From Candidatus Obscuribacteraceae bacterium (GTDB lineage: Bacteria > Cyanobacteriota > Vampirovibrionia > Obscuribacterales > Obscuribacteraceae), in contig JBGASG010000004.1 of NCBI GenBank assembly GCA_044229845.1, positions 288,001 through 352,000 on the forward strand: a stretch of 64,000 bases of DNA, read 5' to 3'. Made by a program: the position numbers and the translations under genes. Numbering within the stretch: position 1 is the stretch's first letter; every line of letters begins with the position of its first letter. The notes beneath the pieces were generated by a model, which worked only from the letters and a program-made list of their open reading frames with translations, ran no database searches and was not told the origin of the DNA. Shown here in pieces: positions 48,672 to 64,000 of this stretch.

Positions 48672-49193
48672 CGCTAGTGAACAAACCTTCGTGTGCGGGA
48701 TTTCTGCATCATACCGACAGATCGCTTGACAAGCTCCGCTTTTCAACGTGTCTTAAGCATGCGCTCCTGAATGAGGATGTGTTTCCGGTCCACTCGCGCA
48801 GCTTGGAAGGCTGCGGCAGCTCTCTCAACTTGGCAATCGGTGAGAGCGGCTGCCCATCCCCCACCGGGGCTTAGGCTCATGCGCATTCGCTAGCGCAATT
48901 TGCCCGGGCAGCAGTTTCTTCAGAATTTCTACCACATCGCAAAAGGCGAACTGCGCGCAGGCTCAGGCGTTCCAGCCATGGTGCGCGTCGCCAACTGGTG
49001 GGGTGGCTTTCGGGATAAGCAATCTCAGAGACTAATTGCCTAATCGTAGTCCACGACTTTTCCTCGACTCCCATCACTCAAACCTAACCGCGCACGCCAA
49101 CCCGGAAAAGAATTTCTTCTGCTCACGCAGAGGGTATTGGACTACGAGCGTGCGCCTGCTTTCGCGCGAACTTGCGCAGAGAGGAACCAACAC

Positions 49194-49796
49194 ATGGACA
49201 TGAATCACATGGACCACATGCATCATCATATGCATGACATGGCCTTCACCCTTCCCGAGTGGCTGCTCTACAGCCTGGGCGCCTTCTTCCTCGCCGGCAC
49301 CGTCTTCTACCTCATGCGCCTGATCAACGGTCGCAAGCTGCAGGCGGTGAACGGCTACTTCGACCCCGAGAACGAAGCGTGGCACATGATCTGCCTCGCC
49401 GGCATGGCTGCAATGCTCGCTCCCATCGCGCTGCAGCCGCCCGTTCTGATCTGGCAGATCCTCTTCCTCGTAGGCGCCGGCTGGTACGCCATCCGCGCCC
49501 GCACCTGGGGCAAGACGATCAAGTACAACAAGCAGTGGTACGACTGGGCGCACTGCGGCATGCTTTTCGGCATGTGGTGGATGTTCGCCTCGCCGATCAC
49601 CGGCACCATCCCTATGGTGCTCAACATCGCCTTCTGGACCTGGTTCTCGGGCTACTACGTCTACCAGACGTTGACTGACCTGCGCGCCAAGCCCACCTTC
49701 TGGTCGCTCGGTCAGGACATCGCGCATCTTTCGATGGGCCTCGTCATGATCGGCATGACCGCCTGGCCGCACGCCTGGATGACGATGGCGATGTAG
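49194..49796 (+). CDS. membrane protein with His/Met-rich N-terminus (DUF5134-like)
   Basis: MDMNHMDHMHHHMHDM; repeated H..M...M..M helices; GAGG RBS. Confidence 0.75.
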   Translation: MDMNHMDHMHHHMHDMAFTLPEWLLYSLGAFFLAGTVFYLMRLINGRKLQAVNGYFDPENEAWHMICLAGMAAMLAPIALQPPVLIWQILFLVGAGWYAIRARTWGKTIKYNKQWYDWAHCGMLFGMWWMFASPITGTIPMVLNIAFWTWFSGYYVYQTLTDLRAKPTFWSLGQDIAHLSMGLVMIGMTAWPHAWMTMAM

Positions 49797-49840
49797 TCTT
49801 CCGGATCGCAGTCAAGCGGGCCCTGAAGACAAATTTCATC

Positions 49841-49911
49841 ACAGCGCCACTGCGGCCGGATGCGAAAATGGGCTTTCTCAGCCCGTTTCCATCCGGCGCG
49901 CAGGGCGCTGT
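49841..49911. repeat. long imperfect hairpin upstream of copA
   Basis: ACAGCGCCACTGCGGCCGGATGCGAAAATGGGCT pairs with AGCCCGTTTCCATCCGGCGCGCAGGGCGCTGT. Confidence 0.7.
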
Positions 49912-49982
49912 CGTTGCCTACGAAACGCTCACCGAGGGGAATCACAGGTTCTCCATCTCCATAGACAAGGAGGACATCGAGT

Positions 49983-52331
49983 ATGACGACGGAAGGAAAA
50001 CATTCCTGCTGCGGGGGCAGTAGTGCACATTCCGCACCAGCGGCTCCCAACCCCAGCATCGCCCCCGAGACCGCCATCGACCCCGTCTGCGGCATGCGCG
50101 TGACGATCTCGGATACATCGCTTTTCTTCGATTTTCAGGATCGCCGGTATGACTTTTGCTGTCAGGGCTGCCGCACCAAATTCAGTACCAGTCCCGGCTA
50201 CTACCTGAGCGGTGCCGCTGCTGCGCGCCCCCGGCGCAAGGCAGTAAAGGCTCGCTACGAGTGCCCGATGCATCCGGATGTCGTGTCCGACAAGCCAGGC
50301 GACTGCCCGGCTTGCGGCATGCCGCTGGAGGCGTCGGTACCCACCGCCGATGACGGCAACGCGGAAGTGAAAGAACTTGCTCATCGTTTCGGCTGGTCGG
50401 CTCTGCTCTCGTTGCCGCTTCTAATCGTCAGCATGAGTGAGATGTTCGGCTTCTCGCTCTTGCCTGCTACCGGCGCCTGGCACCTGGTCAGCTGCTGGCT
50501 GCAAGCGGCGCTGGCAACGCCGGTCGTGTTCTACCTGGCGCGCCCGCTGTTCAGCAAAGCGCTGGCATCGGTGCGCAGCAACAATGCCAACATGTTCACG
50601 CTTCTGGCGCTGGGCATCGGCATTCCCTACGCCTACAGCCTGGTCTCGCTGGTCATCGCCAGCCTCTCCGGTGCTGACGGCGGCACGCACCACCACATGG
50701 TGTACTTCGAGTCGTCGGCTTTGATCGCGACGCTCGCCTGGCTTGGTCAGTATCTGGAGGCACGCGCTCGGCATCAGAGCGGCAGCGCCTTGCGGGCACT
50801 GGTCAAACTGGCACCGGACGACGCCACAGTGCTGATGCCGGACGGCTCCGAGAGCCGCGTTCCGGTCAAGCACATCGCTCCCTGGGCGCGCCTTCGCATT
50901 GCTCCCGGCGAGCGGCTCCCAGTGGACGGCATCGTCATCGACGGTCGCAGCACCGTCGATGAAAGCATGCTCACCGGCGAATCGGTTCCCGTGCTTAAGG
51001 AAACCGGTTCGCAAGTGGCGGCCGGCACCATCAACACGACGGGCAGCCTGCTCGTGCAAGCGCAGCAGGTCGGCGAAGACACGATGCTCTCGGGCATCAT
51101 CAGGCTGGTCAGCGACGCACAACGTTCGCGGGTGCCGATTCAGCAACTGGCAGACAAGGTGGCATCCATCTTCGTCCCTGCCGTCTTGCTGGTGGCCGCT
51201 ACGACAGCCATCAGCTGGCTGGCACTGGGCTTCCCCCTTGCCGACGCGTTGGCGGCAGCCACCGCAGTGCTGGTCGTTGCCTGCCCATGCGCTCTCGGGC
51301 TGGCGGTGCCGATGTCGATCATCGTCGCTTCCGGTCGGGCCGCTCGCGAGGGCGTCCTCTTCAAAGAAGCGCGCTCGCTGCAGACACTCTGCCGCGTCGA
51401 CACCCTGGTGATCGACAAAACCGGCACGCTCACGGAGGGCAAGCCTTCGGTGCAAGCGATTCAACCGGTGCCCGGAACCGACGCTGACGCCTTGCTGGCG
51501 CTGTGCGCGGCTGTCGAGCAGCAGAGCGAGCATCCGCTGGCGGCAGCCATTGCGCAAGCGGCGAAGGCGCAAGCCGTAGCCGTTTCTCACGACTGCCGTG
51601 ACTTCCAGAGCGAAACCGGGTTGGGTGCTCGCGCCACCGTCGACGGCAAGACCGTTCTGGTCGGCTCGCGCGCCTATCTGGTCAAGCACGGTATCGCGGT
51701 GCCTGCCACCGAGGATGCCACCACCACCGTCCACGTCGCCAGCCAGGGCGACTACCTCGGCTCAATCCAATGTGCCGACAAGCTGCGCGACACGAGTGCC
51801 GCGACCATCGCCGAACTGCAAGCCGCCGGCATCTCAGTAATTCTGGCCAGCGGCGACAGTGAAAGCGCCGTTGCGCTCGCCGCCACCGCCTCTGGTATCA
51901 CAACCAGCTATGGTCGCCTGTTGCCCAGCGAGAAGTCGGCTCTTGTCGAGCGGCTCCAGGCTGACGGGCACCGGGTCGCCATGACCGGCGACGGCATCAA
52001 CGACGCGCCGGCTCTGGCTCGGTCCGACGTTGGTATCGCACTGGCCTCCGGAACTGACGCCGCACTGCACACTGCCGACATCGTCCTGGTGTCCGGCGGT
52101 CTGGAGGGCATCGTCAGGGCGCGGAAACTTAGCTTTGCCTTGATGCGCAACATCAGGCAGAATCTGTTTCTCGCGTTCGCCTACAACCTCGTCGCCATCC
52201 CGGTGTGTGCGGGGGCTCTATCGCAACTGGGCATCACTGCGGTGAACCCGGTGGTGGCAGCGCTCGCCATGTGCTTCAGCTCTGTGGCGGTTGTCGCCAA
52301 CGCGCTCAGGCTGAAGGGACAGGCTGCGTAA
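49983..52331 (+). CDS. copA: Cu(I)-translocating P1B ATPase with YHS and CPMHP metal-binding domains
   Basis: DPVCGM, YECPMHP..CPACGM, TGES, CPCALG, DKTGT, SEHP, GDGINDAP, YN and MxxSS. Confidence 0.93.
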   Translation: MTTEGKHSCCGGSSAHSAPAAPNPSIAPETAIDPVCGMRVTISDTSLFFDFQDRRYDFCCQGCRTKFSTSPGYYLSGAAAARPRRKAVKARYECPMHPDVVSDKPGDCPACGMPLEASVPTADDGNAEVKELAHRFGWSALLSLPLLIVSMSEMFGFSLLPATGAWHLVSCWLQAALATPVVFYLARPLFSKALASVRSNNANMFTLLALGIGIPYAYSLVSLVIASLSGADGGTHHHMVYFESSALIATLAWLGQYLEARARHQSGSALRALVKLAPDDATVLMPDGSESRVPVKHIAPWARLRIAPGERLPVDGIVIDGRSTVDESMLTGESVPVLKETGSQVAAGTINTTGSLLVQAQQVGEDTMLSGIIRLVSDAQRSRVPIQQLADKVASIFVPAVLLVAATTAISWLALGFPLADALAAATAVLVVACPCALGLAVPMSIIVASGRAAREGVLFKEARSLQTLCRVDTLVIDKTGTLTEGKPSVQAIQPVPGTDADALLALCAAVEQQSEHPLAAAIAQAAKAQAVAVSHDCRDFQSETGLGARATVDGKTVLVGSRAYLVKHGIAVPATEDATTTVHVASQGDYLGSIQCADKLRDTSAATIAELQAAGISVILASGDSESAVALAATASGITTSYGRLLPSEKSALVERLQADGHRVAMTGDGINDAPALARSDVGIALASGTDAALHTADIVLVSGGLEGIVRARKLSFALMRNIRQNLFLAFAYNLVAIPVCAGALSQLGITAVNPVVAALAMCFSSVAVVANALRLKGQAA

Positions 52332-52359: not shown

Positions 52360-52863
52360 ATGAGCGAGGAGCTTGCCATCTTACTGCCGATTGCCCTTTT
52401 GGCGCTGGTTGTCGGCGGTTATTTACTGACGGTCTTCGAGCCGTACTACGCCTTGCGCACCAGCGAAGGCGCGGAGTTGCTCGAATATCACCGCCAGGAT
52501 CCGAAGCTGCGCGCCATTGCCGCGTGGTGGGCGCAGCGCCTCGTCGACCCCGGCAGTCGCTGGCTCGACGAAAGCAATGCGTCGGTTGTGCGCGTGCGCA
52601 ACAGCGTGCTGGAAGCGCTGGTCCGCCACCGTTTCCTGACGGGCGACGATCCGTCCAAACTGCGGTACGGTGCGAAGGTTTCGCCGGTGCTGCAGCGCGC
52701 TTTTGCGGAATGCGGGCTGGTGCCTCCGGCATCCGCCGTCACACCGCGGGTCGAGATGCAGATCTCGGCGCGCGAAGTGCGGGTCATGAACGGTGAGTTG
52801 GTCTGGAGAGGCAGACCAGCTGAGTACAAGTCGCGCTTCTGCGACTTCTACCCCGAACCCTGA
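52360..52863 (+). CDS. membrane-anchored hypothetical protein
   Basis: N-terminal transmembrane segment; lies between copA and the terminator. Confidence 0.55.
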   Translation: MSEELAILLPIALLALVVGGYLLTVFEPYYALRTSEGAELLEYHRQDPKLRAIAAWWAQRLVDPGSRWLDESNASVVRVRNSVLEALVRHRFLTGDDPSKLRYGAKVSPVLQRAFAECGLVPPASAVTPRVEMQISAREVRVMNGELVWRGRPAEYKSRFCDFYPEP

Positions 52864-52938: not shown

Positions 52939-54273
52939 TCATGCGTCTAAACGCGGGTACTTTGCGGTCAGTGTAAGCCCCTCGCGCTGCTTCGGCAGAA
53001 ACGGCACCGCGAGCAAGCAGGCGGCAGTGAACACGGCTGACAGCACGGCGAGTGGTTGAATCATCCCGTGCGCCAGGGAAGTGAACACGTTGGCGCCGAT
53101 AATCGCGCCCAGCTGGGACCCTATGTTGTACACCGCAATCACCAATCCAATCGTCGTCGCAGTGGCGCGCTTCGGGCAGACATCGGCAGCGTACCCATAG
53201 ATAGTCAGGATTGCCACCATGTTGGTCAGTCCGCGCGCAAATTCAAGAACACTCGCACTTAATCCGTCGTTGCACAGCAAGTAGCCGAGATTGGAAGCCA
53301 CACCGGCAAGGACGGCGATCACTGCTTGCCGCCGATGGTCCGGTTGCACCAGCGCCAGCAGCCTAAAGACGCCGGCTCCGCACAGCATTCCGAATGAATT
53401 GATTGCTGCCAGCTGCCCAATGAAACCCTGATCGAATTTGAGATGCTGCGTGAAGTAGAAGTACAGCGGGGTTCCGAAGCTCGGGCTGAGGTTCCACAGG
53501 AACGTGAACGCAGCCACTCCCTGAAATTTTCGCGATCGCACGGTGGCAAAAATCACGCGCGCGTAGTTGCGCAGGCTCTGGCGGGACGCCACCGTCGTTT
53601 CTTCAAGGCGCAGACTGAAGAGAAACACCGCGGCGGTGATCACTGAACACAAGAACGCGGCACCGCGCAACGCATCGACGGGATGGAACTTCTGGCAAAG
53701 ATAGCCGCCCAATAATCCGGATCCGATGCTGGCGGCATAATAAGCACCCGCCTGCAACGCAAACAGCTTGCGTCCCCGCGCCGGCTGACGATGGGATTCG
53801 GCGGCGACCAGGGCACACAGCACGACCGTCGATAGCGCCATTGCCGTCGAGGTGATAGTCAAGGAAATCAATGTGACTATCATGTGGTGGTGGTCTTGCG
53901 TCAGAAGTGACGCCATAGCGAGAAATCCGAGCGACGCCGTGACTGCGGCAAGCAAGAGGTACGAACGCCTGCGCGTTCCCCACAAGGGCAGGAAGTCGCT
54001 CACGATGCCGAAGACGGGTTTGACGATCCACGGAATCATCAATATCGAGAGGAACCAAGCCACCTGGGCCGCGTTGTACTCTTCGTTCTTGAGCAAGAAA
54101 TACTCAAGCGGCTGCGCGATCAGACAGAAGTGCTGCGCAACGCCCTGTCCGAAATAGGCTGCCACCAGATATAGCGGCAAATATGCCGCCGACTGAGCGC
54201 CTGCAGGCTGAGCGTCTACCGCTGAGCGACCGGCGGCTTGCGCGCTAGGAAGTTGACTTCCGTGGATTGCCAT
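52939..54273 (-). CDS. MFS transporter (BT1/folate-biopterin-like)
   Basis: IPWIVKPVFGIVSDFLPLWGTRRRSYL; about 12 transmembrane segments. Confidence 0.85.
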   Translation of the reverse strand: MAIHGSQLPSAQAAGRSAVDAQPAGAQSAAYLPLYLVAAYFGQGVAQHFCLIAQPLEYFLLKNEEYNAAQVAWFLSILMIPWIVKPVFGIVSDFLPLWGTRRRSYLLLAAVTASLGFLAMASLLTQDHHHMIVTLISLTITSTAMALSTVVLCALVAAESHRQPARGRKLFALQAGAYYAASIGSGLLGGYLCQKFHPVDALRGAAFLCSVITAAVFLFSLRLEETTVASRQSLRNYARVIFATVRSRKFQGVAAFTFLWNLSPSFGTPLYFYFTQHLKFDQGFIGQLAAINSFGMLCGAGVFRLLALVQPDHRRQAVIAVLAGVASNLGYLLCNDGLSASVLEFARGLTNMVAILTIYGYAADVCPKRATATTIGLVIAVYNIGSQLGAIIGANVFTSLAHGMIQPLAVLSAVFTAACLLAVPFLPKQREGLTLTAKYPRLDA

Positions 54274-56111
54274 AATACATCTTGTCCATCAAGCTCGATT
54301 CGCTCGCGATAGGGAGCGGTTTCGAGCACTTCGATACTCCAATTTCGGAAAACTCCTTCCAATAACTCGACTGCTTGAGTTGCCGTCAGCGGGGTCTCCA
54401 CCTTAGTTTCCACAGGCTCGCCGGTGACGGCGTCCGCAACATTGCGTCCAGTGGAGGTTGTAATCAACACGCGTCCGCCGGCTCTGGTTGCGCCTGCGAT
54501 CTGCGACAGCAGACGGCGCAGCGTCGGCATTGAGCCAACGTGCTCGATAGCGGATACAGCCAAGATCAAATCAAATGAATCGGCTTCCAACGCGAATTCT
54601 TCCATCTCACTGCATATCGCGAGGACCCGCTCGCTCACCCCATGCCGGCTTGCATATGCCGTCAGTTTCTCGATTGCCGACGGCAGAATATCCACGGCGG
54701 TAACGTGCGCGCCACAGCGTTTTGTCAATTCAATAGTGTTGCGCCCGACGCCGCATCCGAGATCCAGCACTCGCGATTCCGCTGTGAGACCGGCTGCCAG
54801 TGCCGGCAAACGCGGATCAGATTGAGCCAGCCATGAACCAGGTGCATACAATTCGTGTCGCCCGTAGTACTGTTCATGGTAATCGCGGGTGCGCTCGCGG
54901 GCGGCGTTGAGCGCCGAGCGCTCACGCAGATCGGCGGCGACGGTATGGACAATGGCGCCCGTTATGTTAGCCGGATAGCCATAGATTTTGATGACGGAAT
55001 TGGTTTCGCCCGGCAACGGATTGCCAGCGGCAACCGACGGCTGCACGTATTGCATGGTGAAGACATCGAAGAAGGAGCGCGTTTCTTCATTCCAACCGTA
55101 CAGCGGCAAGAAACTGTGAAATGCAAAACCCATCTCCCGCAGCCGCTCCGTCAGTGCCGGACAGATGCTGCTGTTAGCTGGAATGCGCACTGCGATGAAA
55201 CGCTTCTTCAAGGAAAGCAATTCTCTGACTGCGTTCTCGACCTGCGCCACATCGCTGCCGGTCAGCTGCTCGGGGCAAATCACATAGCCGTGCTCATAGC
55301 CGTCATTGCGCTGAACAACCAGTTGGGCGAGAGTGAGGCTCTGGGCTCCGGGTTCCGCTTTGGCTTCGGGCTTAGCGTCTCCGCTGTCCGCAAAGTGATA
55401 TGCGAGAAGTGGCTCGAACTGTTTGGCTATTCGCCGACAAATCGCGTCATAGCGCGGAGCGACGAAGACTGTGCGTTTCTCTTTAATGCTCCGCAAGAGG
55501 CGAGCAACCTCGGTGTCTCTCTTTGGCTGTTCGGCAAGCGCTTCTCCGTAGGCGCGCCAGGTCCACAGCACCGACTCGGGGCGGTCGGCGAAAAACACGT
55601 TGGGATAGTGGCTGTATCCAAATCCGCAAAAAGCCCCATACCCATCGGCGACGTGAGCAGCCTGGGAAGCCAGGCTATGCGTCACCAGCTCGGTGCAATT
55701 GATCATCAAGTCTTGCCGCGACAGGTAAGCCGACACGCCGCGCATGAGCAGACTGCCGATGCCGCGTCCTCGCAGGTCGCGTCGCACCGCCATGCAGTTG
55801 TTTTCGATCTGGTAAGGTCCCAGAACATCCAGAGTGATAGCACCAGCCACGATACCGGTCGCGACAGCTTCTACCAGGACAAGAATACGTCCTGCCGCCA
55901 GATTCTCCGCCATGCTGGGCACGTCAAAGAGCGACGGATCGGGATAAGGCTCGCAGCCGGGCGCGCCGACACCGCCTGCACCGAGCGCGGCTTCGAACAT
56001 CTCAACCAGCGGCTGTGCGTCCGCGGCGAGCGCCAGACGCGCCAAGTATTCACCATCGGTAACCAACGTCTCAGCAGTGGAAACAGCTGCGCAAGCATTA
56101 CTTGACGACAT
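54216..56111 (-). CDS. GNAT acetyltransferase-class I SAM methyltransferase (TehB-like) fusion
   Basis: AVRRDLRGRGIGSLL; VLDLGCGVGRN, VTAVD, FDLI; GGAG RBS before ATG 56111. Confidence 0.8.
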   Translation of the reverse strand: MSSSNACAAVSTAETLVTDGEYLARLALAADAQPLVEMFEAALGAGGVGAPGCEPYPDPSLFDVPSMAENLAAGRILVLVEAVATGIVAGAITLDVLGPYQIENNCMAVRRDLRGRGIGSLLMRGVSAYLSRQDLMINCTELVTHSLASQAAHVADGYGAFCGFGYSHYPNVFFADRPESVLWTWRAYGEALAEQPKRDTEVARLLRSIKEKRTVFVAPRYDAICRRIAKQFEPLLAYHFADSGDAKPEAKAEPGAQSLTLAQLVVQRNDGYEHGYVICPEQLTGSDVAQVENAVRELLSLKKRFIAVRIPANSSICPALTERLREMGFAFHSFLPLYGWNEETRSFFDVFTMQYVQPSVAAGNPLPGETNSVIKIYGYPANITGAIVHTVAADLRERSALNAARERTRDYHEQYYGRHELYAPGSWLAQSDPRLPALAAGLTAESRVLDLGCGVGRNTIELTKRCGAHVTAVDILPSAIEKLTAYASRHGVSERVLAICSEMEEFALEADSFDLILAVSAIEHVGSMPTLRRLLSQIAGATRAGGRVLITTSTGRNVADAVTGEPVETKVETPLTATQAVELLEGVFRNWSIEVLETAPYRERIELDGQDVLWQSTEVNFLARKPPVAQR

Positions 56112-57681
56112 AAGAGAACTCCTGCTTCGTTTTGATTTTGCCGGCGGCATCATCCGCCAAGATCTGCTGCGCACAGTTGTATCCGGGCGCTCCATTGACG
56201 TTGCCGGCAGGATACGTGCCTGCACCGCAGACATAGAGCGCGGGGATTTGTGTGCGATGTCCGGAGGCACCGCTGAAATTGCGCTTGTCTGCAAGAAACT
56301 GCGGCGCCATCGGCAGGTGCCAGCAACTGGCTCCAGACAGGCGAAACTGATTGCGCAATTCTGTAGGTCCGACGGCTGCGGCTTCGACGACGCACTCGCG
56401 GATATCGCTTGCATGCGCACTTAGATCAGTCAAAACCTTCTCCACCAGCGCCTCGGCAGAGATGTCGCCGGCGCCAGGCAGGTAGTGAATATCGACGGTC
56501 AAAAGATGTTTGCCGACAGGAGCGATGGTATCGTCCATGGTGGAGGGAAAGCACATCGTCATCATCAATTGAGATGGCATGGCACCGGCGTGCACGCGCT
56601 TCGCATCCTCAATAATCGACTCTAAGGGCGGAGCCACGACAATAACACCTTGATAGTTATGTTGCAGCTCGTCGAGCACAGCGAATCGGGGCAGGCGGCT
56701 GAGCGCCAGGTGCACCTTGCCCGCGGAGACAGTGGGCACTTCCGTCTGCAGTCGTTCGCGCAGCTGAGCGCCGGTGCCGGCAGCGAGGCTCTCCCCGTCC
56801 AAGAGGCGCCCAAAGGTCTGCCACGGATCGGCATTGGAGATCACGCAATCGAATTCCATTAAGGCGCCGCTTTCAGTCAGAATGCCGGTGGCGCGACCGT
56901 TTTTGGTCAGCGCTTTCTCAATCGGGCAGTCCAACATGATCTGGGCACCGGCAGCCAGCGCTGCTTGAGTCATGGCTTCGGTAATCGCGCCCATGCCGCC
57001 CTTGACGAAGCCCCAGGCGCCCGGCTGCCCGGCTGTGACAGCAGTGCCGTGATGAATGCAACCGAATATGGTGCCGGGAAGGTTTGAAAAACCAGGTGTG
57101 CAGGTAGACGCGGCGGCTTTGAACGCCGGATTCTCCACATACTCGCCGAGCAAGTCGAGCAGCGAACGCTCGAACAGCCCATCTGCGATAGTCGGCAATC
57201 CGGCTGCCCTCAGCGCCTCTTGCAGTTCTTTCTGACCGACAGGTGGACGCATGTAGAACGGGCTGAGCACGGCTGCCGCGCGCGCGATGTCGCCCCAGAA
57301 CGCCGACCAGCCTTGCACGTCGGCATCGGTCAATCCATTTATTCTGTATCTGGAGCCGCCGCCTTCACGCGGCGTATAAGAATACTGCCCGTCAGGCAAG
57401 AGCACGATCTCTATGGGATCGGCGAGGTACGTCTGCAGTCCCCAGGTTTCCAATTCAAGATCCCGCGCGATTTCTTCACGCAGCATGCCGTAATAGGACG
57501 CAACGGTGGATACGCGAAATCCGGTGAAGAGCTCCTCGGTGACGCAAAGACCGCCGGTCTTCGAACGGGCTTCGAACAGAGTCACCTCGTGCCCTGCAGA
57601 GGCCAGGTAAAACGCGCAAACGAGCCCATTATGGCCCGCTCCGATGATGGCTATTTGCAGTGGTTTGGTGTCGGCGTTCAC
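56098..57681 (-). CDS. phytoene-desaturase-like FAD oxidoreductase
   Basis: IIGAGHNGLVCA, GGMGAI, LYVCGAGTYP..NGAPGYNCA. Confidence 0.88.
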   Translation of the reverse strand: MNADTKPLQIAIIGAGHNGLVCAFYLASAGHEVTLFEARSKTGGLCVTEELFTGFRVSTVASYYGMLREEIARDLELETWGLQTYLADPIEIVLLPDGQYSYTPREGGGSRYRINGLTDADVQGWSAFWGDIARAAAVLSPFYMRPPVGQKELQEALRAAGLPTIADGLFERSLLDLLGEYVENPAFKAAASTCTPGFSNLPGTIFGCIHHGTAVTAGQPGAWGFVKGGMGAITEAMTQAALAAGAQIMLDCPIEKALTKNGRATGILTESGALMEFDCVISNADPWQTFGRLLDGESLAAGTGAQLRERLQTEVPTVSAGKVHLALSRLPRFAVLDELQHNYQGVIVVAPPLESIIEDAKRVHAGAMPSQLMMTMCFPSTMDDTIAPVGKHLLTVDIHYLPGAGDISAEALVEKVLTDLSAHASDIRECVVEAAAVGPTELRNQFRLSGASCWHLPMAPQFLADKRNFSGASGHRTQIPALYVCGAGTYPAGNVNGAPGYNCAQQILADDAAGKIKTKQEFSYVVK

Positions 57682-57700
57682 GGTTGGTCGATTGGCGTTC

Positions 57701-58936
57701 CTATAACTCGCTTTGCAAGACCTCGATCAGGCGGTCGATTTCATCGCGGCTGTTGTAGACATGCAGGCTAATACGCAGGAAATCATCCGCTTCAGCGCTT
57801 TTTCCTTTGCACAAATTTCCGGAGCGCACCATAATGTTCTCGCTGTCCAACAAGAACGCGACATCGGCTGATTCCGCTTGCTGAAAGCGAAATGCCAGAA
57901 TGCCGTAACCGCCAGGGCAGCCGCAGATGCCTGGTCCGGGAGCGAACTCAATTCCGGGCATCCCGACTAATTGGTCATACAGATACTTTGTCAGTGAAGA
58001 AACATGCGCTTCGATATGTTCGACACCGATGCTCTGGATGAAGGAAACGGCTTCGCCCAGTCCGAGAATAGCCGGCGTGTCGTAAGTGCCCGCTTCACAG
58101 ATCTCTGCAAAGGTTCCATTGAACGAAACCTCCAGCGCGGCGCCATCGCCTTCTGAAATCACGCATTGGGTGCCGCCGCCGATGCGCACCGGTTTCATCT
58201 CCCGCTGCCGATTCCGGCGCGCCCAGAGAGCGCCGACACCGGTCGGTCCAAACATCTTATGTCCGGAGAACGAAATGAAATCGACGGGCAATTCGGAGAC
58301 TTTGACGGCAGTGTGTCCGATGCTCTGGCTGGCATCCAGACTGATAACGACCGCATCTCCGACAATGTCGCGCACCTCCTGGACCTCCATCTCCAGTCCG
58401 TACACGTGGTGCACGTGCGTCATCGCCAGCACGCGTGTGCGCTCGCTTACGCCTGAGCGAATGCTCTTCAGGTCGTAGTCGCCGACTTCGTGGATGGCGA
58501 AGGGCACGACTTTGACATGCTTGCCGAATTGCTTCAGCGTCTGCACCAGAGTGAGCCAGGGCAAAGTCGCGCTGCGGTGGTCGTCCAGACACAACATGAT
58601 TTCGTCGCCGTCATTGAGGTTGAGCAATCCCCATGACAGAGCAACGAGATTGAGGCTATCGGTGGCACCGCCGGTGAAGGCAATGTCAGCGGCATCCGCG
58701 CCGAGCAATTCAGCGACCGCTCCCCGCACCCGCTCAATACCGGCGCGGGCACGCGTCGAGAGACCGGAGACTCCGCGTCCAGCGTTGGCGCATTCGCTTT
58801 CGTAGAAACGCACCATGGTTTCCACAACCCTCGCCGGCTTCTGCGTTGTCGCGGCGTTGTCAAAGAAGATCGTTCCCGGTCGAGACACGAACGCCGGAAA
58901 CTGGCAACGCACATCCGTCTCTAAGACAGTTACCAT
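57701..58936 (-). CDS. class V PLP enzyme, SufS/cysteine desulfurase-like
   Basis: FDNAATTQKP, DASQS, SGHKMFGPTG, EAGT, VRSGNLC. Confidence 0.88.
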   Translation of the reverse strand: MVTVLETDVRCQFPAFVSRPGTIFFDNAATTQKPARVVETMVRFYESECANAGRGVSGLSTRARAGIERVRGAVAELLGADAADIAFTGGATDSLNLVALSWGLLNLNDGDEIMLCLDDHRSATLPWLTLVQTLKQFGKHVKVVPFAIHEVGDYDLKSIRSGVSERTRVLAMTHVHHVYGLEMEVQEVRDIVGDAVVISLDASQSIGHTAVKVSELPVDFISFSGHKMFGPTGVGALWARRNRQREMKPVRIGGGTQCVISEGDGAALEVSFNGTFAEICEAGTYDTPAILGLGEAVSFIQSIGVEHIEAHVSSLTKYLYDQLVGMPGIEFAPGPGICGCPGGYGILAFRFQQAESADVAFLLDSENIMVRSGNLCKGKSAEADDFLRISLHVYNSRDEIDRLIEVLQSEL

Positions 58937-60282
58937 TACTTGACTCCAGCCAGTTGCTTGCCGGCGGCGACGCCGCGTTCACAGGGCTTGCCCGCATCAC
59001 GCCACTCGACAAATCCGCCAATCAAGCTAGCGCACTCAATTCCCTTTGCCCCGAAAAACGCGGCGAAACGGCGCGATTGATCGCCTGTCGGGCAGACAAA
59101 GAGAACGCGGTGCGACTTGGAAAACGGCACACCGTTTTCCGCCATGTCAGCGAGCGTCTCGGTTGCGATATTGATCGAATTGGGGATGTGCGAGGCTTTG
59201 AACGCCAGCGCACCACGCATATCGACAATCATTGGGGCATCGCCACGCTGCAGCCAATCTTGAGCTTGCTCGACATTGACTTGCACAGCTTGCTCGATTT
59301 GCTCATCGGAGAGATCGCGCACGCTTTCTTTTTTGGCAGCCATGCCGAACAGCTCGGGACGGCACTTTTGCAGATAGGATAGATACCACTCGACGCGATC
59401 GCAAACGATAAATACGGCATTTTGCTTTTCAGTCAGCGTCTCGTCAATGCCGCGCAGATATTTAAGAGCCGCCGCCAGACTGCCGCCGCCCGTTGGACCT
59501 GCGAGCACACCGGCGCGACGAATGAGCAGAAGCATTGCATCGATAGATTCATCGATATCGACTTCAACAATGTCGTCGTAGAAGTCTTTGCGGAAGAGAC
59601 CGACTTCATACATTTCATCGACGTTGCGGATGCCGGGCAGCAAATGCCCCTTGGAGGCAATCACGCCGATATTCTTGACGCCCGGGTTCTTTTCTTTAAG
59701 GAGCGAGCCTGTGCCGCGGGTGGAACCGGTCGTTCCCAGCCCACCAATGAAAAAGTCGACGCGGTCGAGATCTTCCATGATCTCTTTGCCGGTGGTGTTG
59801 AAGTGCGCTTCGATATTGCGCTCATTCGTGTACTGCGACGTGTGGAAATACTTGCCGGGCTCGCCCAACATGATTTGTTCGATAAACGTGATCGGGTCAT
59901 TGGGATCAGTCGGGTCGGGGCATTCGCTGAGCCCCGGCAGCTCGTCCACTTCGGCGCCCAGCAGTTGCAGAATCTGTTTTACCTCACGCACCTTAATTCG
60001 GTTGGTGACGATCTTGAACGGCACCCCGTGCAGCGAACACAATATCTGCATGGCTTTGGCCATGTTGCCGCTGGACGACTCGATGACCGTCTTGCCTTCG
60101 GCGGCAATGCTTTCGATGTCGTGACGCAGCACGTTCCACGCGCTCTTGTCCTTGACCGACCCAAACGGGTTGAGCAATTCGAGCTTGGCGTAGAGATTGA
60201 TGTTCTTCAGCCCGTGCAGCTCGGCGGGCAGCTCGAGCAAAGGCGTGTTACCGATGACTTCGGTGATGTTGGAAACGAGCAT
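58936..60282 (-). CDS. cysteine synthase-family PLP enzyme fused to a rhodanese domain
   Basis: GNTPL, NPFGSVKD, SSSGN, GLGTTG; C-terminal IVDMR, HIPNS, CPTGDQS. Confidence 0.9.
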   Translation of the reverse strand: MLVSNITEVIGNTPLLELPAELHGLKNINLYAKLELLNPFGSVKDKSAWNVLRHDIESIAAEGKTVIESSSGNMAKAMQILCSLHGVPFKIVTNRIKVREVKQILQLLGAEVDELPGLSECPDPTDPNDPITFIEQIMLGEPGKYFHTSQYTNERNIEAHFNTTGKEIMEDLDRVDFFIGGLGTTGSTRGTGSLLKEKNPGVKNIGVIASKGHLLPGIRNVDEMYEVGLFRKDFYDDIVEVDIDESIDAMLLLIRRAGVLAGPTGGGSLAAALKYLRGIDETLTEKQNAVFIVCDRVEWYLSYLQKCRPELFGMAAKKESVRDLSDEQIEQAVQVNVEQAQDWLQRGDAPMIVDMRGALAFKASHIPNSINIATETLADMAENGVPFSKSHRVLFVCPTGDQSRRFAAFFGAKGIECASLIGGFVEWRDAGKPCERGVAAGKQLAGVK

Positions 60283-60285
60283 TGT

Positions 60286-61803
60286 TTATTGTTCTCCCGT
60301 TTTGGTTTCCCAGAGGGGCCAGTACTTTTCGTCGGCACACCAGCGAAACTGGCTACCGCGCTGGCTCAGCGCCACTTTTTTGGCAACCGGCTGCATGATC
60401 GATTCGCTGGCGCTGAAGTCCATGAAGTAACCGGCAGTGTTGAGAAACACAACCAGATCTCCCGGTTTTGGCAGCTTCCGCAAGTATGTCTTGTGTCGAT
60501 AAATGAGATCGCTTTCCAGGCAAAGGTTGCCCGAGAAGTAGACAGCGACTGGTTCTTCATCGGCGCCAGCCGGTTCTTGCTGATAGATGATCACCGGGTC
60601 TACAAAGATTTCCTGGTCAAGAAACGAGATGTCTTGCCGCTTCATGCGCAGCGAAACCAGCGTGTCCCCATTGCTGGAATCGCGCACAGAGAGAACCTCG
60701 GCGACGGTTAAGCCGACCTGGTCGAGAAGCGCGCGCCCCGGTTCTATCCAGAGCGCAATCATGTTGTCGCGAAGAAACTCCGCAGCAGTGACATCAGGAT
60801 TGTCGGGAAGCGGCTGCCGCAACATGTCGACGAGAAACGCCGGGCCGGTCGTGCCGTCGAAATAGTTGTAGCTGTTGAAGTTTCCTCGCAGCTTGCCCTG
60901 TTCGACATACATGCCGAAAGTGTTGCCCTGCCAGGCGAGCGTCGGACGCTGACCGAGCACTCCTTCTTTCAAGGCACTGGTGTAGGCATTCCACTCATTC
61001 TCGTCAGCCAGATAATTGACTTTGTAGCCGCCGCCGATGTTCAAAACACTGGGCTCGAAGCCGCGCGCCACCGCTTCTTCGAAGAGCTGCACGCAGTTTT
61101 CAATGGCGATCATGCGCTCTGGAACGCTCACCGTATCCAGGTGGAACGAGAAGCCCAGGAAGCGCAATTGCTCGCCGGACTCGGTCAATATGTCGAACGC
61201 CTCGCCCACCTTATCAATGCTGATGCCGAAGCGGCTGCCTTTGTTGAGGAAACGGGTGTGTGACGAGCGAAACCCGCAGAGTCTCAGCAAAATTGGCGTG
61301 CTCGGAGCCTGAGGCAATGACTTGCGCAGCGTGAGCAAGAGCTTAAGCTCTTCGATGCTGTCGATAGAAACTGTCACGCCGTGCTGGATGCATACAAAAA
61401 GAAACTCCGGAGTCTTCGGTCCGGTCGCTTCAATGCGCTTACCTTCGAATCCGGAAGCGAGGGCATGCCCGAGCTCATTCACCGAAGAAACATCAATGCA
61501 GGCATCGGATGAAAGCGCCAGCTGCCTGACGACGGAATCCGAGCGGTTGCATTTGTGCGCGAAGAACACGCGCCCCTGCAGTTGCAGTTTCTTGAATGCG
61601 TCCTTGAAGCCCTGGACATTCGCAGTCACCAACTCGGGCAGCAAGACATTGAGCGGGCTGCCCAGCGCGCCGGTCAATTCGGTGAGCAACCGGCGATTGT
61701 CGAGCACAGCGCTGACACCAGGGACAACCCTGGCAGTCAGCGGCAATGCCGACTGCTTTGCCGCTTCTTCTGTCGCGACGCACTTTTCGTCCAACAAAGT
61801 CAT
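60286..61803 (-). CDS. fold-III PLP decarboxylase (Y4yA/LysA-like)
   Basis: FAHKCN, DVSS..EL, SRFG, FHLD, NIGGG, EPGRAL, GNLCLESD, NTAGY. Confidence 0.85.
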   Translation of the reverse strand: MTLLDEKCVATEEAAKQSALPLTARVVPGVSAVLDNRRLLTELTGALGSPLNVLLPELVTANVQGFKDAFKKLQLQGRVFFAHKCNRSDSVVRQLALSSDACIDVSSVNELGHALASGFEGKRIEATGPKTPEFLFVCIQHGVTVSIDSIEELKLLLTLRKSLPQAPSTPILLRLCGFRSSHTRFLNKGSRFGISIDKVGEAFDILTESGEQLRFLGFSFHLDTVSVPERMIAIENCVQLFEEAVARGFEPSVLNIGGGYKVNYLADENEWNAYTSALKEGVLGQRPTLAWQGNTFGMYVEQGKLRGNFNSYNYFDGTTGPAFLVDMLRQPLPDNPDVTAAEFLRDNMIALWIEPGRALLDQVGLTVAEVLSVRDSSNGDTLVSLRMKRQDISFLDQEIFVDPVIIYQQEPAGADEEPVAVYFSGNLCLESDLIYRHKTYLRKLPKPGDLVVFLNTAGYFMDFSASESIMQPVAKKVALSQRGSQFRWCADEKYWPLWETKTGEQ

Positions 61804-61814
61804 TGCGCTTCTCC

Positions 61815-62807
61815 TTAGACGGTCACGAGGTTTGCCGACGATGCCTGCATGATGGCTTTGTCGAGCGCCACCGCGTAGGAAAACTCGGCATCGAGGTCGG
61901 CATCGAGAGCGGTGCCGTAGTAGTCGTTGTACCAGTCGGCGCAGACCTTAGAGTGCGTAGTCTGCAAGAGCTCGAGATACTGATCCCAATCGCGCGTGCG
62001 CTCCGTCAAGATTTGCAGGCACTTCTCGAAAGCCTGTTCTTGCTCTTTGTGGAAGCGCTCCAGCGCCGCGCTGTCACCCTGCTCGAAATGCTTGAGATGT
62101 TTGGAGTTCGGAATGTATCCGATGACGCGATCGGCTGGTACATGCGACTCGATAAACGCTTTATCTTCCTCGCTGTCGACCTTGTTACCGATGACATAAA
62201 CGCGGTCAGCCAGTTGCGGAGCGATGGAAAGAAAGTCCTGGTAGACCTTCAAAGATTTCAAAGTCGGCTCGACAACAAAAACGTTGAGGTCATAGGCGAA
62301 CGAGAGCGAAGTCGCGACGTTGTCGGTACCGGCTGTCGTGTCGGCCACCACCATGTCGGTCGGACGATCGAGCATGTGGTGCATGATCGCCGCCAATCCG
62401 CGCAGCTTGGTGTGATAACAGGAGCCGCCGACGTCGGATTCTTTATATGTACCGACGGTGAGAAGCGAGATGTTGCCGCTGCGCAGCGCGTATTGCGACA
62501 CGAACGGATCGCGCTCGCTGACCATCACAAAATTCGATTGCATCGAAGGGGGAGTCGTACCTACCATGGGGCGCTCGCCCAGGTCGGCGCGCTGCCCGCG
62601 CAGATGTTCGAAAATCTGTTCGCAGACCTCGCCCAGTTCTTGCTTCTCGCCGACCACGTCGCTCAGGCTGAGAGCGCTCAACAAATGTGCATTAACGTCG
62701 GCGTCAATCGCCAACACAAACGGGAAGCGCGCCGCGACGAACTTCACGAACCCGGCAGCAGTAGTGGTTTTTCCGGCGCCACCTTTTCCCAAAAACGCAA
62801 CTCTCAT
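61815..62807 (-). CDS. CooC/MinD-like P-loop ATPase
   Basis: Deviant Walker A GKGGAGKTT, IDAD, GGSCYH, DTTAG, VVEPT, GNKV. Confidence 0.85.
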   Translation of the reverse strand: MRVAFLGKGGAGKTTTAAGFVKFVAARFPFVLAIDADVNAHLLSALSLSDVVGEKQELGEVCEQIFEHLRGQRADLGERPMVGTTPPSMQSNFVMVSERDPFVSQYALRSGNISLLTVGTYKESDVGGSCYHTKLRGLAAIMHHMLDRPTDMVVADTTAGTDNVATSLSFAYDLNVFVVEPTLKSLKVYQDFLSIAPQLADRVYVIGNKVDSEEDKAFIESHVPADRVIGYIPNSKHLKHFEQGDSAALERFHKEQEQAFEKCLQILTERTRDWDQYLELLQTTHSKVCADWYNDYYGTALDADLDAEFSYAVALDKAIMQASSANLVTV

Positions 62808-62822
62808 GTTTCCTCCGAATCT

Positions 62823-64000
62823 CTATGGATGACTGTGCAAAACTGAAAACCACGGCAGCAGCACTGCATCAGTAAAGTGATACGAGGCGCGCGGTTTCAA
62901 AATGGTGTGGGGATTTTCTTTTATGTGTTTGTAGATGCCGTGGTGGCAGGCAAGAATTGCCTGTCCGCTGTCGTACGTTTCTTTCTGAACAGCGCCGGAC
63001 AGATACTCCGGTAGGGGCACCACCGGGATGTTGAGAATTGCCGACCGCGCCCGCAGAATGGGACGCAAAGCGGCATCCAAGCGTGACGCTCGTTCTGGCT
63101 CGGCAAGAAACGAGGACAGATGCGACATCAACTCAAATGCCAGGGCAGGCGTCGGCTTCTCGCGCTCGACAAACTCCGCCATCCGCTCCTGGAAGGAGCT
63201 TTCGGTCAATGACCAGGTTTCGTTCTGGCAGAAGTGGAGCGCATTCCAGAGCCAGCAGGATGTGAGGCGGTGATTGCCGTCGGACACGGTGTCGTATTCA
63301 TTTATGACAATCGGAGCAAACTTTGTCTGCCCGAGATTGAGCAGCTCTTCGAAAAGCCGGGTGTTCTCGCAGCGCTCAGTGAGCTGGATTTCTTTCAGGC
63401 GGCGCGAGAGCACGGTGACGAAGTTGCCATCAAACCAGGAAGCAAAGATCGAATCGCGTTGTTGTTGCATGGCCGAGAACGAAAGAAAGGCATCGATTTC
63501 GAACGCGGCCGCAGCCAACACATCGCGGCGGGTGAGCGCCGGAATCAGACTGACCAGCGAACGCAGTTGCGCAACGTGCAGATCAAATTGCCGCCCCTCG
63601 ACCGGCGCCGCATCCCAGCTGACGCGCACCAGATTTAAAGTCTCCAGTAATTTTTCCGCAGTGCCGGACACGCGAGCCGACCGCATAGACTGAACAATCG
63701 CATCGATCTGCTCTGCCCACTGCTGCGCACAGGAAACTTCGGCTTCGCTTGCGGGAAGGCATTGCGCTTCGACTTCGCACAATTCGGGAGCCGGCGCGTG
63801 GGTCCATGGCCAGCTCGCAGCCAAGTCGGACGAACAGCTGCCGGACAAGAGGACAGCCTGGCTCCAGCGAAATCGCGCGTCGCGCATCGCCATCGATTGC
63901 GCGAAAAATGAGGCACCGCGATCGCGGCTGATCGACTTGCGTCCGGGCGCGGGCACATATCGTCCCGGATAGATACCGGGAGGTTCAGCGCCTGCGACCA
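62823..64000 (-). CDS. hypothetical protein with ParB/sulfiredoxin-like motif, frame open to window end
   Basis: PIVINEYDTVSDGNHRL; no in-frame stop between 63956 and 64000. Confidence 0.55.
   Translation of the reverse strand, partial: VAGAEPPGIYPGRYVPAPGRKSISRDRGASFFAQSMAMRDARFRWSQAVLLSGSCSSDLAASWPWTHAPAPELCEVEAQCLPASEAEVSCAQQWAEQIDAIVQSMRSARVSGTAEKLLETLNLVRVSWDAAPVEGRQFDLHVAQLRSLVSLIPALTRRDVLAAAAFEIDAFLSFSAMQQQRDSIFASWFDGNFVTVLSRRLKEIQLTERCENTRLFEELLNLGQTKFAPIVINEYDTVSDGNHRLTSCWLWNALHFCQNETWSLTESSFQERMAEFVEREKPTPALAFELMSHLSSFLAEPERASRLDAALRPILRARSAILNIPVVPLPEYLSGAVQKETYDSGQAILACHHGIYKHIKENPHTILKPRASYHFTDAVLLPWFSVLHSHP

Follow-up and report, generated by a model that had tools for sequence, protein, structure and literature searches.

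Introduction

To our knowledge, few bacterial zincophore pathways are known. Here we report on an operon of eight genes from a Candidatus Obscuribacteraceae bacterium (genome G000, 5.16 Mb, 88% complete), which lies at the end of a stretch of 64,000 nucleotides that was analysed as a whole and is called the window (G000:C19:288,001-352,000). The operon is a real, previously undescribed and likely zinc-regulated biosynthetic unit. We put at about one in two the probability that it makes a secreted, sulfur-containing zincophore of aminoethyl type, built without a non-ribosomal peptide synthetase (NRPS) or an NRPS-independent siderophore (NIS) synthetase.

Aspergillomarasmine A synthetase (8H4H/8H4Q) and Fda4 of Fusarium poae have the same combination of a CysK-like domain and a rhodanese domain with a loop cysteine as one protein of the operon. 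Both use O-phosphoserine (OPS) and join it to the nitrogen of an amino acid, which is alanine for Fda4 (entry title; PMC12751119). Aspergillomarasmine A chelates zinc. The Fda cluster likewise has an FAD oxidoreductase, an acetyltransferase and a major facilitator superfamily (MFS) transporter, and Fda4 feeds an NRPS; for the aspergillomarasmine and Fda clusters the available part of the report mentions neither a desulfurase nor a decarboxylase (PMC12751119). The fungal aspergillomarasmine A synthetase also lacks Cys121, which is present in the CysK-rhodanese of the operon.

The staphyloferrin B pathway (SbnI, SbnA, SbnH) shares with the operon a ParB-fold serine kinase (PMC12704722), a CysK-like OPS enzyme, a fold-III decarboxylase and an MFS exporter. 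Unlike that pathway, the operon has no IucA/IucC and no visible SbnB-type partner, is likely regulated by zinc and not by iron, and adds a rhodanese fusion and a desulfurase; with the SbnA equivalog model TIGR03945 only 154.6 bits were reached (cut-off 349.95). The pathway to [S,S]-ethylenediamine disuccinate (EDDS) uses cysteine-synthase-like and diaminopimelate-decarboxylase-like enzymes and needs an argininosuccinate-lyase-type enzyme that adds fumarate. In Amycolatopsis japonicum EDDS is also a Zur-regulated zincophore made without NRPS or NIS synthetase (PMC4993170). The operon, unlike the EDDS pathway, has no argininosuccinate-lyase-type gene among its eight, and a desulfurase and a rhodanese domain are present. 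In the mycobacterial CysM-CysO system, protein-bound sulfur is added to an OPS-derived aminoacrylate. Structures of mycobacterial OPS sulfhydrylation (3dwg/3dki) were among our structure matches. Unlike CysM-CysO, the operon has no ThiS/MoaD carrier or MoeZ and contains a decarboxylase and tailoring enzymes instead; because these follow, the pathway is unlikely to end at cysteine. The operon works like the OPS-based chelator pathways, gave a negative result as an NIS pathway and contains no EDDS-type lyase.

Gene content and conservation of the operon

All eight minus-strand open reading frames (ORFs) that a first-pass annotation, made from the letters alone, had placed between 52939 and 64000 were found there. 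The intergenic gaps of 15, 11, 3, -1, 19 and -14 nt and a final overlap, which measures 58 nt, were reproduced from the ORF coordinates, the gap of -14 nt holding with the ATG of the GNAT-methyltransferase gene at 56111. The features are as follows.

62823..64000, minus strand, start 187 nt beyond the window (G000:C19:352,187): ParB/Srx-fold protein of ~454 residues, predicted free serine kinase (SbnI/SerK-like), from the predicted fold
61815..62807, minus strand: CooC-like P-loop ATPase, likely metal handling (CbiA; PDB match 3kje)
60286..61803, minus strand: fold-III pyridoxal phosphate (PLP) decarboxylase, database name 'Y4yA family', core gene (PF02784, Orn_Arg_deC_N)
58936..60282, minus strand: CysK-like beta-replacement enzyme fused to rhodanese, core gene (PF00291, PALP, and PF00581, Rhodanese; Lys44, Cys121, Cys397)
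57701..58936, minus strand: SufS-type cysteine desulfurase-like enzyme, core gene (PF00266, Aminotran_5; Lys227, Cys376 at the catalytic position)
56098..57681, minus strand: FAD oxidoreductase, CrtI/CrtO-like, accessory (Amino_oxidase/CrtI-like domain)
54216..56111, minus strand: fusion of GNAT acyltransferase and S-adenosylmethionine methyltransferase, 631 residues, accessory (GNAT E 2e-5, and a methyltransferase domain)
52939..54273, minus strand: MFS transporter of BT1 type, likely exporter, accessory (PF03092, BT1; PF07690, MFS_1)

The domain labels of the annotation agreed with the Pfam and NCBIfam scans, the ParB/Srx label through motif and fold; among the matches listed, none of the eight proteins exceeded an NCBIfam equivalog cut-off. 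The 5' end lies outside the window, as had been said: the first gene starts about 187 nt past its end (G000:C19 ~352,187), because homologues align from residue ~19 of the long frame. Past it come a short ORF and then, in divergent orientation, the gene for a KefB-like antiporter. With the 5' end so located, the operon in G000 is complete and has exactly eight genes, which fixes the earlier count of 'at least 8'.

No NIS, NRPS or polyketide synthase gene was seen, judged on reading, among the ORFs of at least 150 residues in the 20 kb upstream, and the IucA/IucC family (PF04183) had no match in the 88% complete genome. Among the eight operon proteins no lyase family was matched in Pfam or NCBIfam. 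The annotation had proposed two checks, for a core synthetase upstream and for synteny in other genomes; both were run and neither spoke against it. Its claim of an unrecognised biosynthetic operon with no NIS, NRPS or polyketide synthase gene nearby is borne out by the upstream ORFs, the synteny and the PF04183 search. Literature searches restricted to non-subscription literature found no paper on the gene set. In two RNA runs 5-7% of words matched, as scattered short contigs with sparse cover.

We examined 31 main loci with the CysK-rhodanese, 20 further regions covering divergent matches and two matching Streptomyces replicons. Counts over 47 loci refer to all loci with the CysK-rhodanese; two of them (L041 and L071) are from one genome and most are close kin. 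Within 9 kb of the CysK-rhodanese the decarboxylase was found in 47/47 loci and the desulfurase in 46/47, the sole exception ending at a contig edge. The three-enzyme core was thus present in 46 of 47 loci, from Obscuribacterales and two Streptomyces. The other genes were less constant (ATPase 35, GNAT/methyltransferase 35, ParB-fold gene 33, FAD enzyme 32 and MFS 15 of 47), and several loci hold only the core. The unit is therefore a core of Y4yA-like decarboxylase, CysK-rhodanese and cysteine desulfurase with variable accessories, which are five of the eight genes. The 31 main loci had the decarboxylase in 31, the desulfurase and the FAD enzyme in 30 each, the ParB-fold gene in 29, the ATPase in 28 (often twice), an Asp/Asn beta-hydroxylase-like gene in 28, a Fur-family gene in 25 and MFS in 12. 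As the decarboxylase recurs in 31/31 and desulfurase and FAD enzyme in 30/31 of these loci, the gene arrangement is not due to chance.

The closest named database records were from Candidatus Obscuribacterales. A close decarboxylase (E<=1e-99) was found in 24 of 36 genomes of the same family and in 0 of 24 of other families. The CysK-rhodanese (E<=1e-60) was found in 0 of 300 other Cyanobacteriota genomes, a sample holding no other members of the family of G000. ESM Atlas clusters with PALP and rhodanese were mostly from Actinomycetota. Only G000 and its congener have GNAT and methyltransferase as a fusion; in relatives outside the genus they are separate genes. In 28 loci (e.g. L039:4890-5786) the operon opens with an Asp/Asn beta-hydroxylase-like 2-oxoglutarate oxygenase, and these relatives also carry a second ATPase and a second methyltransferase. 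Neither of the latter occurs in G000, and one query did not find the hydroxylase there; the products therefore probably differ between genera.

A clade of four core-only copies (support 100/99) has no operator box of the kind described below. A copper-type P1B ATPase gene precedes three of the four, while the remaining one runs into the end of its contig; directly upstream of one copy lies a CsoR-family gene.

Records titled Flavobacterium (L028) and Cryomorphaceae (L045) also carry the cluster, at ~72% identity. Since L045 nests among Obscuribacterales in the tree, both may be mis-binned contigs.

Operator, regulator and the probable link to zinc

A near-perfect palindrome was detected beyond the window end (G000:C19:352,207-352,227), 20-40 nt before the start of the first gene. 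Allowing 3 mismatches, it occurred at only 3 sites in the 5.16 Mb of G000, preceding the operon, a gene pair of TonB and a Fur-family protein, and a TonB-dependent receptor. An operator matrix was built on 20 sites in relatives; because these had been selected for their resemblance to the one in G000, scores with it are partly circular. In G000 the operon site scored highest with 32.2 bits, followed by the other two sites with 30.5 and 28.5 bits and then by a site of 20.5 bits, and five permuted matrices gave 0-1 sites above 22 bits. Sites above 16 bits were found in 40 of 53 loci, compared with 0-8 for 20 permuted matrices, and 17 of these 40 had given training sites; 28 of the 31 main loci had such a site, in most cases immediately in front of the opening gene of the cluster. 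In an independent test, 12 of 14 receptor-bearing genomes had an upstream site of at least 26 bits, and the other two were cut by contig ends.

The second G000 locus (L074, G000:C1:928,238-932,240) encodes TonB, a Zur-like regulator at C1:928,667 and a TonB-dependent receptor and has two copies of the same operator. These genes are likely the uptake arm of the regulon. The best PDB matches of the regulator were 3mwm, 9ire (labelled ferric uptake regulator), 7vo0 and 2o03 (labelled zinc uptake regulator), of which we take 3mwm and 7vo0 to be Streptomyces Zur structures. Zinc-related genes were found next to homologous clusters: ZigA, over cut-off, beside the cluster in L059; a COG0523 GTPase behind the operator box in L062; and, likewise behind the box, MerC genes. 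Directly upstream of the core in Streptomyces sp. NBC_01237 lie genes for S14, L33, type-B L31, a COG0523 GTPase and a His-rich protein, and in the Streptomyces locus L078 type-B L31 was over cut-off.

The palindrome is of the Fur family and likely a Zur (zinc-starvation) operator, and the regulator matches and neighbouring markers suggest that the regulated metal is likely zinc. The operator is shared with a Zur-like regulator and a receptor, and homologous clusters have ZigA and zinc-free ribosomal proteins as neighbours, so that the operon is likely triggered by zinc limitation; we hold control of a metal-ligand pathway by zinc limitation to be highly probable. Among the amine, metallophore and cofactor options of the first-pass annotation, operator, regulator and gene neighbours now favour the metallophore.

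A His-rich repeat protein of 100-114 residues adjoins the core in Obscuribacterales (L073:8531-8875) and Streptomyces (L078:9518-9820). The two copies are 44% identical and had no family match in the one library scanned per copy.

Enzymes of the operon

The ParB-motif protein was modelled with a predicted local distance difference test score (pLDDT) of 90. In a structure search (VIA, 48,161 chains) SbnI was found with Z 7.4 (131 aligned, 3.2 A) and SerK with Z 7.2 (128 aligned, 3.0 A), at 12-15% identity; the third-best chain reached only Z 4.8. No sequence match was found in Pfam, NCBIfam or PDB, and the ESM Atlas matches were all under 0.9. The motif D303-G-N-H-R307 was invariant in 51 sequences, and the ParB/Srx catalytic fold was present without the helix-turn-helix and dimerisation domains. 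SbnI and SerK are free serine kinases (PMC12704722, PMC5120207), and the modelled fold predicts the same activity for the operon protein. A ParA/ParB partition system was considered and rejected, since the ATPase resembles CooC and the other protein, with the ParB fold, resembles SbnI.

For the CysK-rhodanese (model pLDDT 83) the top four Foldseek matches were all aspergillomarasmine A synthetase (8h4q/8h4h), with 23-24% identity to the fungal enzyme; one of the entries is bound to OPS. The SbnI/SerK fold of the first protein and this likeness agree in pointing to OPS as the electrophile. Cys121 and Cys397 were invariant in 47/47 homologues, and 8h4q keeps the equivalent of Cys397 and lacks Cys121. 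Since aspergillomarasmine A synthetase has the same fusion and the same cysteine and makes C-N bonds, the rhodanese fusion alone is no proof of sulfur chemistry.

The desulfurase has the PLP lysine Lys227 and the mobile-loop Cys376 at the catalytic position. It scored 297 bits with TIGR01979, below the SufS cut-off of 475, and belongs to a divergent subfamily. Among the cluster desulfurases 41 were SufS-type and 5 IscS-type, and the catalytic cysteine was kept in 41/41 and 5/5. An additional C-x-C (Cys338, Cys340) in the SufS-type enzyme was invariant in 25/25 aligned Obscuribacterales copies and not evident in the Streptomyces copies. A predicted complex of the desulfurase dimer with the rhodanese domain scored 0.56, versus 0.00 for the best of 3 controls; the runs agreed in at least 94% of contacts and the partner pLDDT was at least 83. 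Because passes at scores of up to 0.60 included only 18 of 157 solved complexes, plus both mismatches that passed among 215, this prediction supports a desulfurase-rhodanese complex weakly.

The annotation's proposal of sulfur incorporation stays plausible through the desulfurase and Cys121; the rhodanese domain drops out as an argument by itself. Use of sulfur is favoured because a desulfurase is nearly constant in the clusters, is recruited from two subfamilies and keeps its catalytic cysteine, despite 5 other class V homologues in G000. The extra invariant Cys121 and the link of core-only copies to a copper ATPase favour it as well, copper(I) preferring sulfur ligands. For selenium, which had also been suggested, no evidence was seen in the one test made, the SclA model (110 bits, cut-off 525).

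SbnH-type fold-III enzymes decarboxylate beta-substituted alanine units, and the Y4yA decarboxylase keeps the PLP lysine (Lys84) and Cys428 motifs. The sole PDB match of the ATPase was CooC (3kje, E 4e-18). It has C-x-H in place of the C-x-C of CooC, as C-[YF]-H in 61/61 homologues at E<1e-20, and likely handles metal. The MFS protein is likely an exporter.

Proposed pathway and alternatives

Our preferred reading draws on gene content, synteny, conserved residues, folds, the operator and the shared regulon, from which substrates, product, metal and directions of transport are inferred. The SbnI/SerK-like kinase would convert serine to OPS. The desulfurase would take sulfur from cysteine onto Cys376 and hand it as persulfide to Cys397 of the rhodanese domain, and the CysK domain would turn OPS into a PLP-bound aminoacrylate and add the sulfur, perhaps via Cys121 and possibly repeatedly, as in aspergillomarasmine synthetase. 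The Y4yA enzyme could then remove the carboxyl group from a beta-substituted alanine unit, giving an aminoethyl-thio arm, an N,S ligand resembling cysteamine or thialysine. After tailoring by the FAD oxidoreductase, acyltransferase and methyltransferase, the MFS protein would export the product, the co-regulated TonB-dependent receptor would take up the metal complex, and moving or unloading the metal would fall to the CooC-like ATPase. That the nearest structure to the CysK-rhodanese is aspergillomarasmine A synthetase argues for a chelator.

Several observations weigh against this reading. A single transfer of sulfur from cysteine to a serine skeleton only remakes cysteine, so the route needs a repeated transfer or a different acceptor, for which we can name none. 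The nucleophile is an amine in both CysK-rhodanese fusions that have been characterised, and the rhodanese cysteine is retained in 8h4q, for which no sulfur transfer is known. For the first protein, Z values of about 7 can reflect a common arrangement, and Foldseek returned nothing at E<=0.001. The ParB-fold kinase is absent in 14/47 and MFS in 32/47 loci, and the kinship of most loci limits what their number tells. On the side of regulation, sites above 16 bits were lacking in 2 of the 5 IscS-type and 3 of the 31 main loci. All NCBIfam scores of the regulator were below cut-off, the best being Bacillus Fur (92 bits, cut-off 220), with enterobacterial Zur lower. Zinc markers of the kind seen in relatives were not found near the operator sites of G000 itself; for COG0523 the genome gave PF02492 matches that were all weak, reaching 60 bits at most, and that did not lie close to any of the three top sites. 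The receptor also occurs in three genomes without a close decarboxylase homologue (G002, G005, G016) and may therefore not be specific to the product of the operon.

The same zinc-starvation operon could instead make a sulfur-free aminopolycarboxylate resembling aspergillomarasmine A or EDDS. The CysK domain would join an amino-acid nitrogen to OPS, the Y4yA enzyme would yield an ethylenediamine unit, and the desulfurase would have a side role in enzyme persulfidation or in stripping sulfur from an N-linked cysteine. The top structural match makes C-N bonds from OPS, Fda4 and its clustered oxidoreductase, acetyltransferase and transporter offer a parallel (PMC12751119), the rhodanese cysteine is kept in 8h4q, and EDDS is a precedent for a Zur-regulated zincophore made by neither NRPS nor NIS enzymes (PMC4993170). 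We nevertheless consider it unlikely, given a desulfurase with catalytic cysteine in 46/47 loci from two subfamilies, the additional invariant Cys121 and the low identity of 23-24% to the fungal enzyme. Still less probable is that the core makes no secreted scavenger but an intracellular buffer of thiol or persulfide type, or provides a zinc-independent route around sulfur amino-acid metabolism, for use under zinc shortage and copper stress. Core-only copies behind a copper ATPase and a DUF5134 gene, one of them directly preceded by a CsoR-family gene, would suit such a role, as would the missing exporter in 32/47 loci, the His-rich protein that adjoins the core in Obscuribacterales as well as in Streptomyces (44% identity) and the receptor in genomes without the cluster. 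However, the tailoring set of oxidoreductase, acyltransferase, one or two methyltransferases and hydroxylase in most main loci fits a stable specialised molecule, and the operator is common to TonB and the receptor.

An iron (Fur)-regulated siderophore like staphyloferrin B, with its NIS synthetase elsewhere, is very improbable. The SbnI-like kinase, the fold-III decarboxylase, the sub-threshold SbnA-like match, the TonB-dependent receptor and the Fur as best NCBIfam match of the regulator would agree with it, but G000, at 88% completeness, has no IucA/IucC match, zinc markers stand beside homologous clusters, and a distant cluster type with a different palindrome and a flavodoxin (below) looks like the iron system.

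Extending the preferred zincophore reading beyond G000, the three-enzyme module might in general relay persulfide sulfur into phosphoserine units to form aminoethyl-thio chelators, be controlled by zinc starvation or, with CopA, by copper stress depending on the genome, and have spread between Melainabacteria and Actinobacteria. This generalisation is tentative and we regard it as doubtful. If true, it would be unusual for a single module to serve zinc uptake as well as copper defence, and persulfide-fed beta-replacement would be new enzymology. The module would then represent a new class of metallophore chemistry, with the first specialised metabolite for Obscuribacterales and the first function of this Y4yA subfamily outside NIS clusters. 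The signature synthetases on which mining tools rely are missing from the operon, and as the core is also found in culturable Streptomyces it can be tested at once. Aspergillomarasmine A, the nearest known product, inhibits metallo-beta-lactamases by stripping zinc (PMC7586795), so that an analogue from bacteria, which may contain sulfur, would have practical value.

Related clusters and neighbouring genes

A four-gene version with IscS-type desulfurase, ATPase, Y4yA enzyme and CysK-rhodanese was found in L058-L062, adjoining MerC and COG0523 genes. A third, distant cluster type was found at L055:3744-13423 and in L063-L067. It comprises a fusion of 900-950 residues of a Cys/Met-lyase-like enzyme with CysK, a Y4yA enzyme (27%), a short-chain dehydrogenase/reductase, a cystathionine-lyase-like enzyme, D-amino-acid-oxidase-like enzymes, a MOSC protein, MFS, another Fur-family gene and a flavodoxin. 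In 3 loci a different palindrome precedes its first gene, and it is possibly an iron-regulated pathway to a sulfur metabolite.

In the window, genes for a DUF5134 membrane protein and a copper-type P1B ATPase (49137-52331, plus strand) converge on the 3' end of the operon. The ATPase was over the cut-off of TIGR01511 and has CPC, YN and MxxSS motifs. The two genes are preceded, near 48858, by a C/G-tract palindrome that resembles a CsoR operator. In L056, L068 and L069 the DUF5134 and copper ATPase genes are co-oriented with the core-only copies; the membrane protein of L069 had no Pfam match and was assigned by likeness on reading. Between the copper ATPase and the MFS gene of the window lies an ORF of 167 residues (52360-52863, plus strand) with no Pfam or NCBIfam match.

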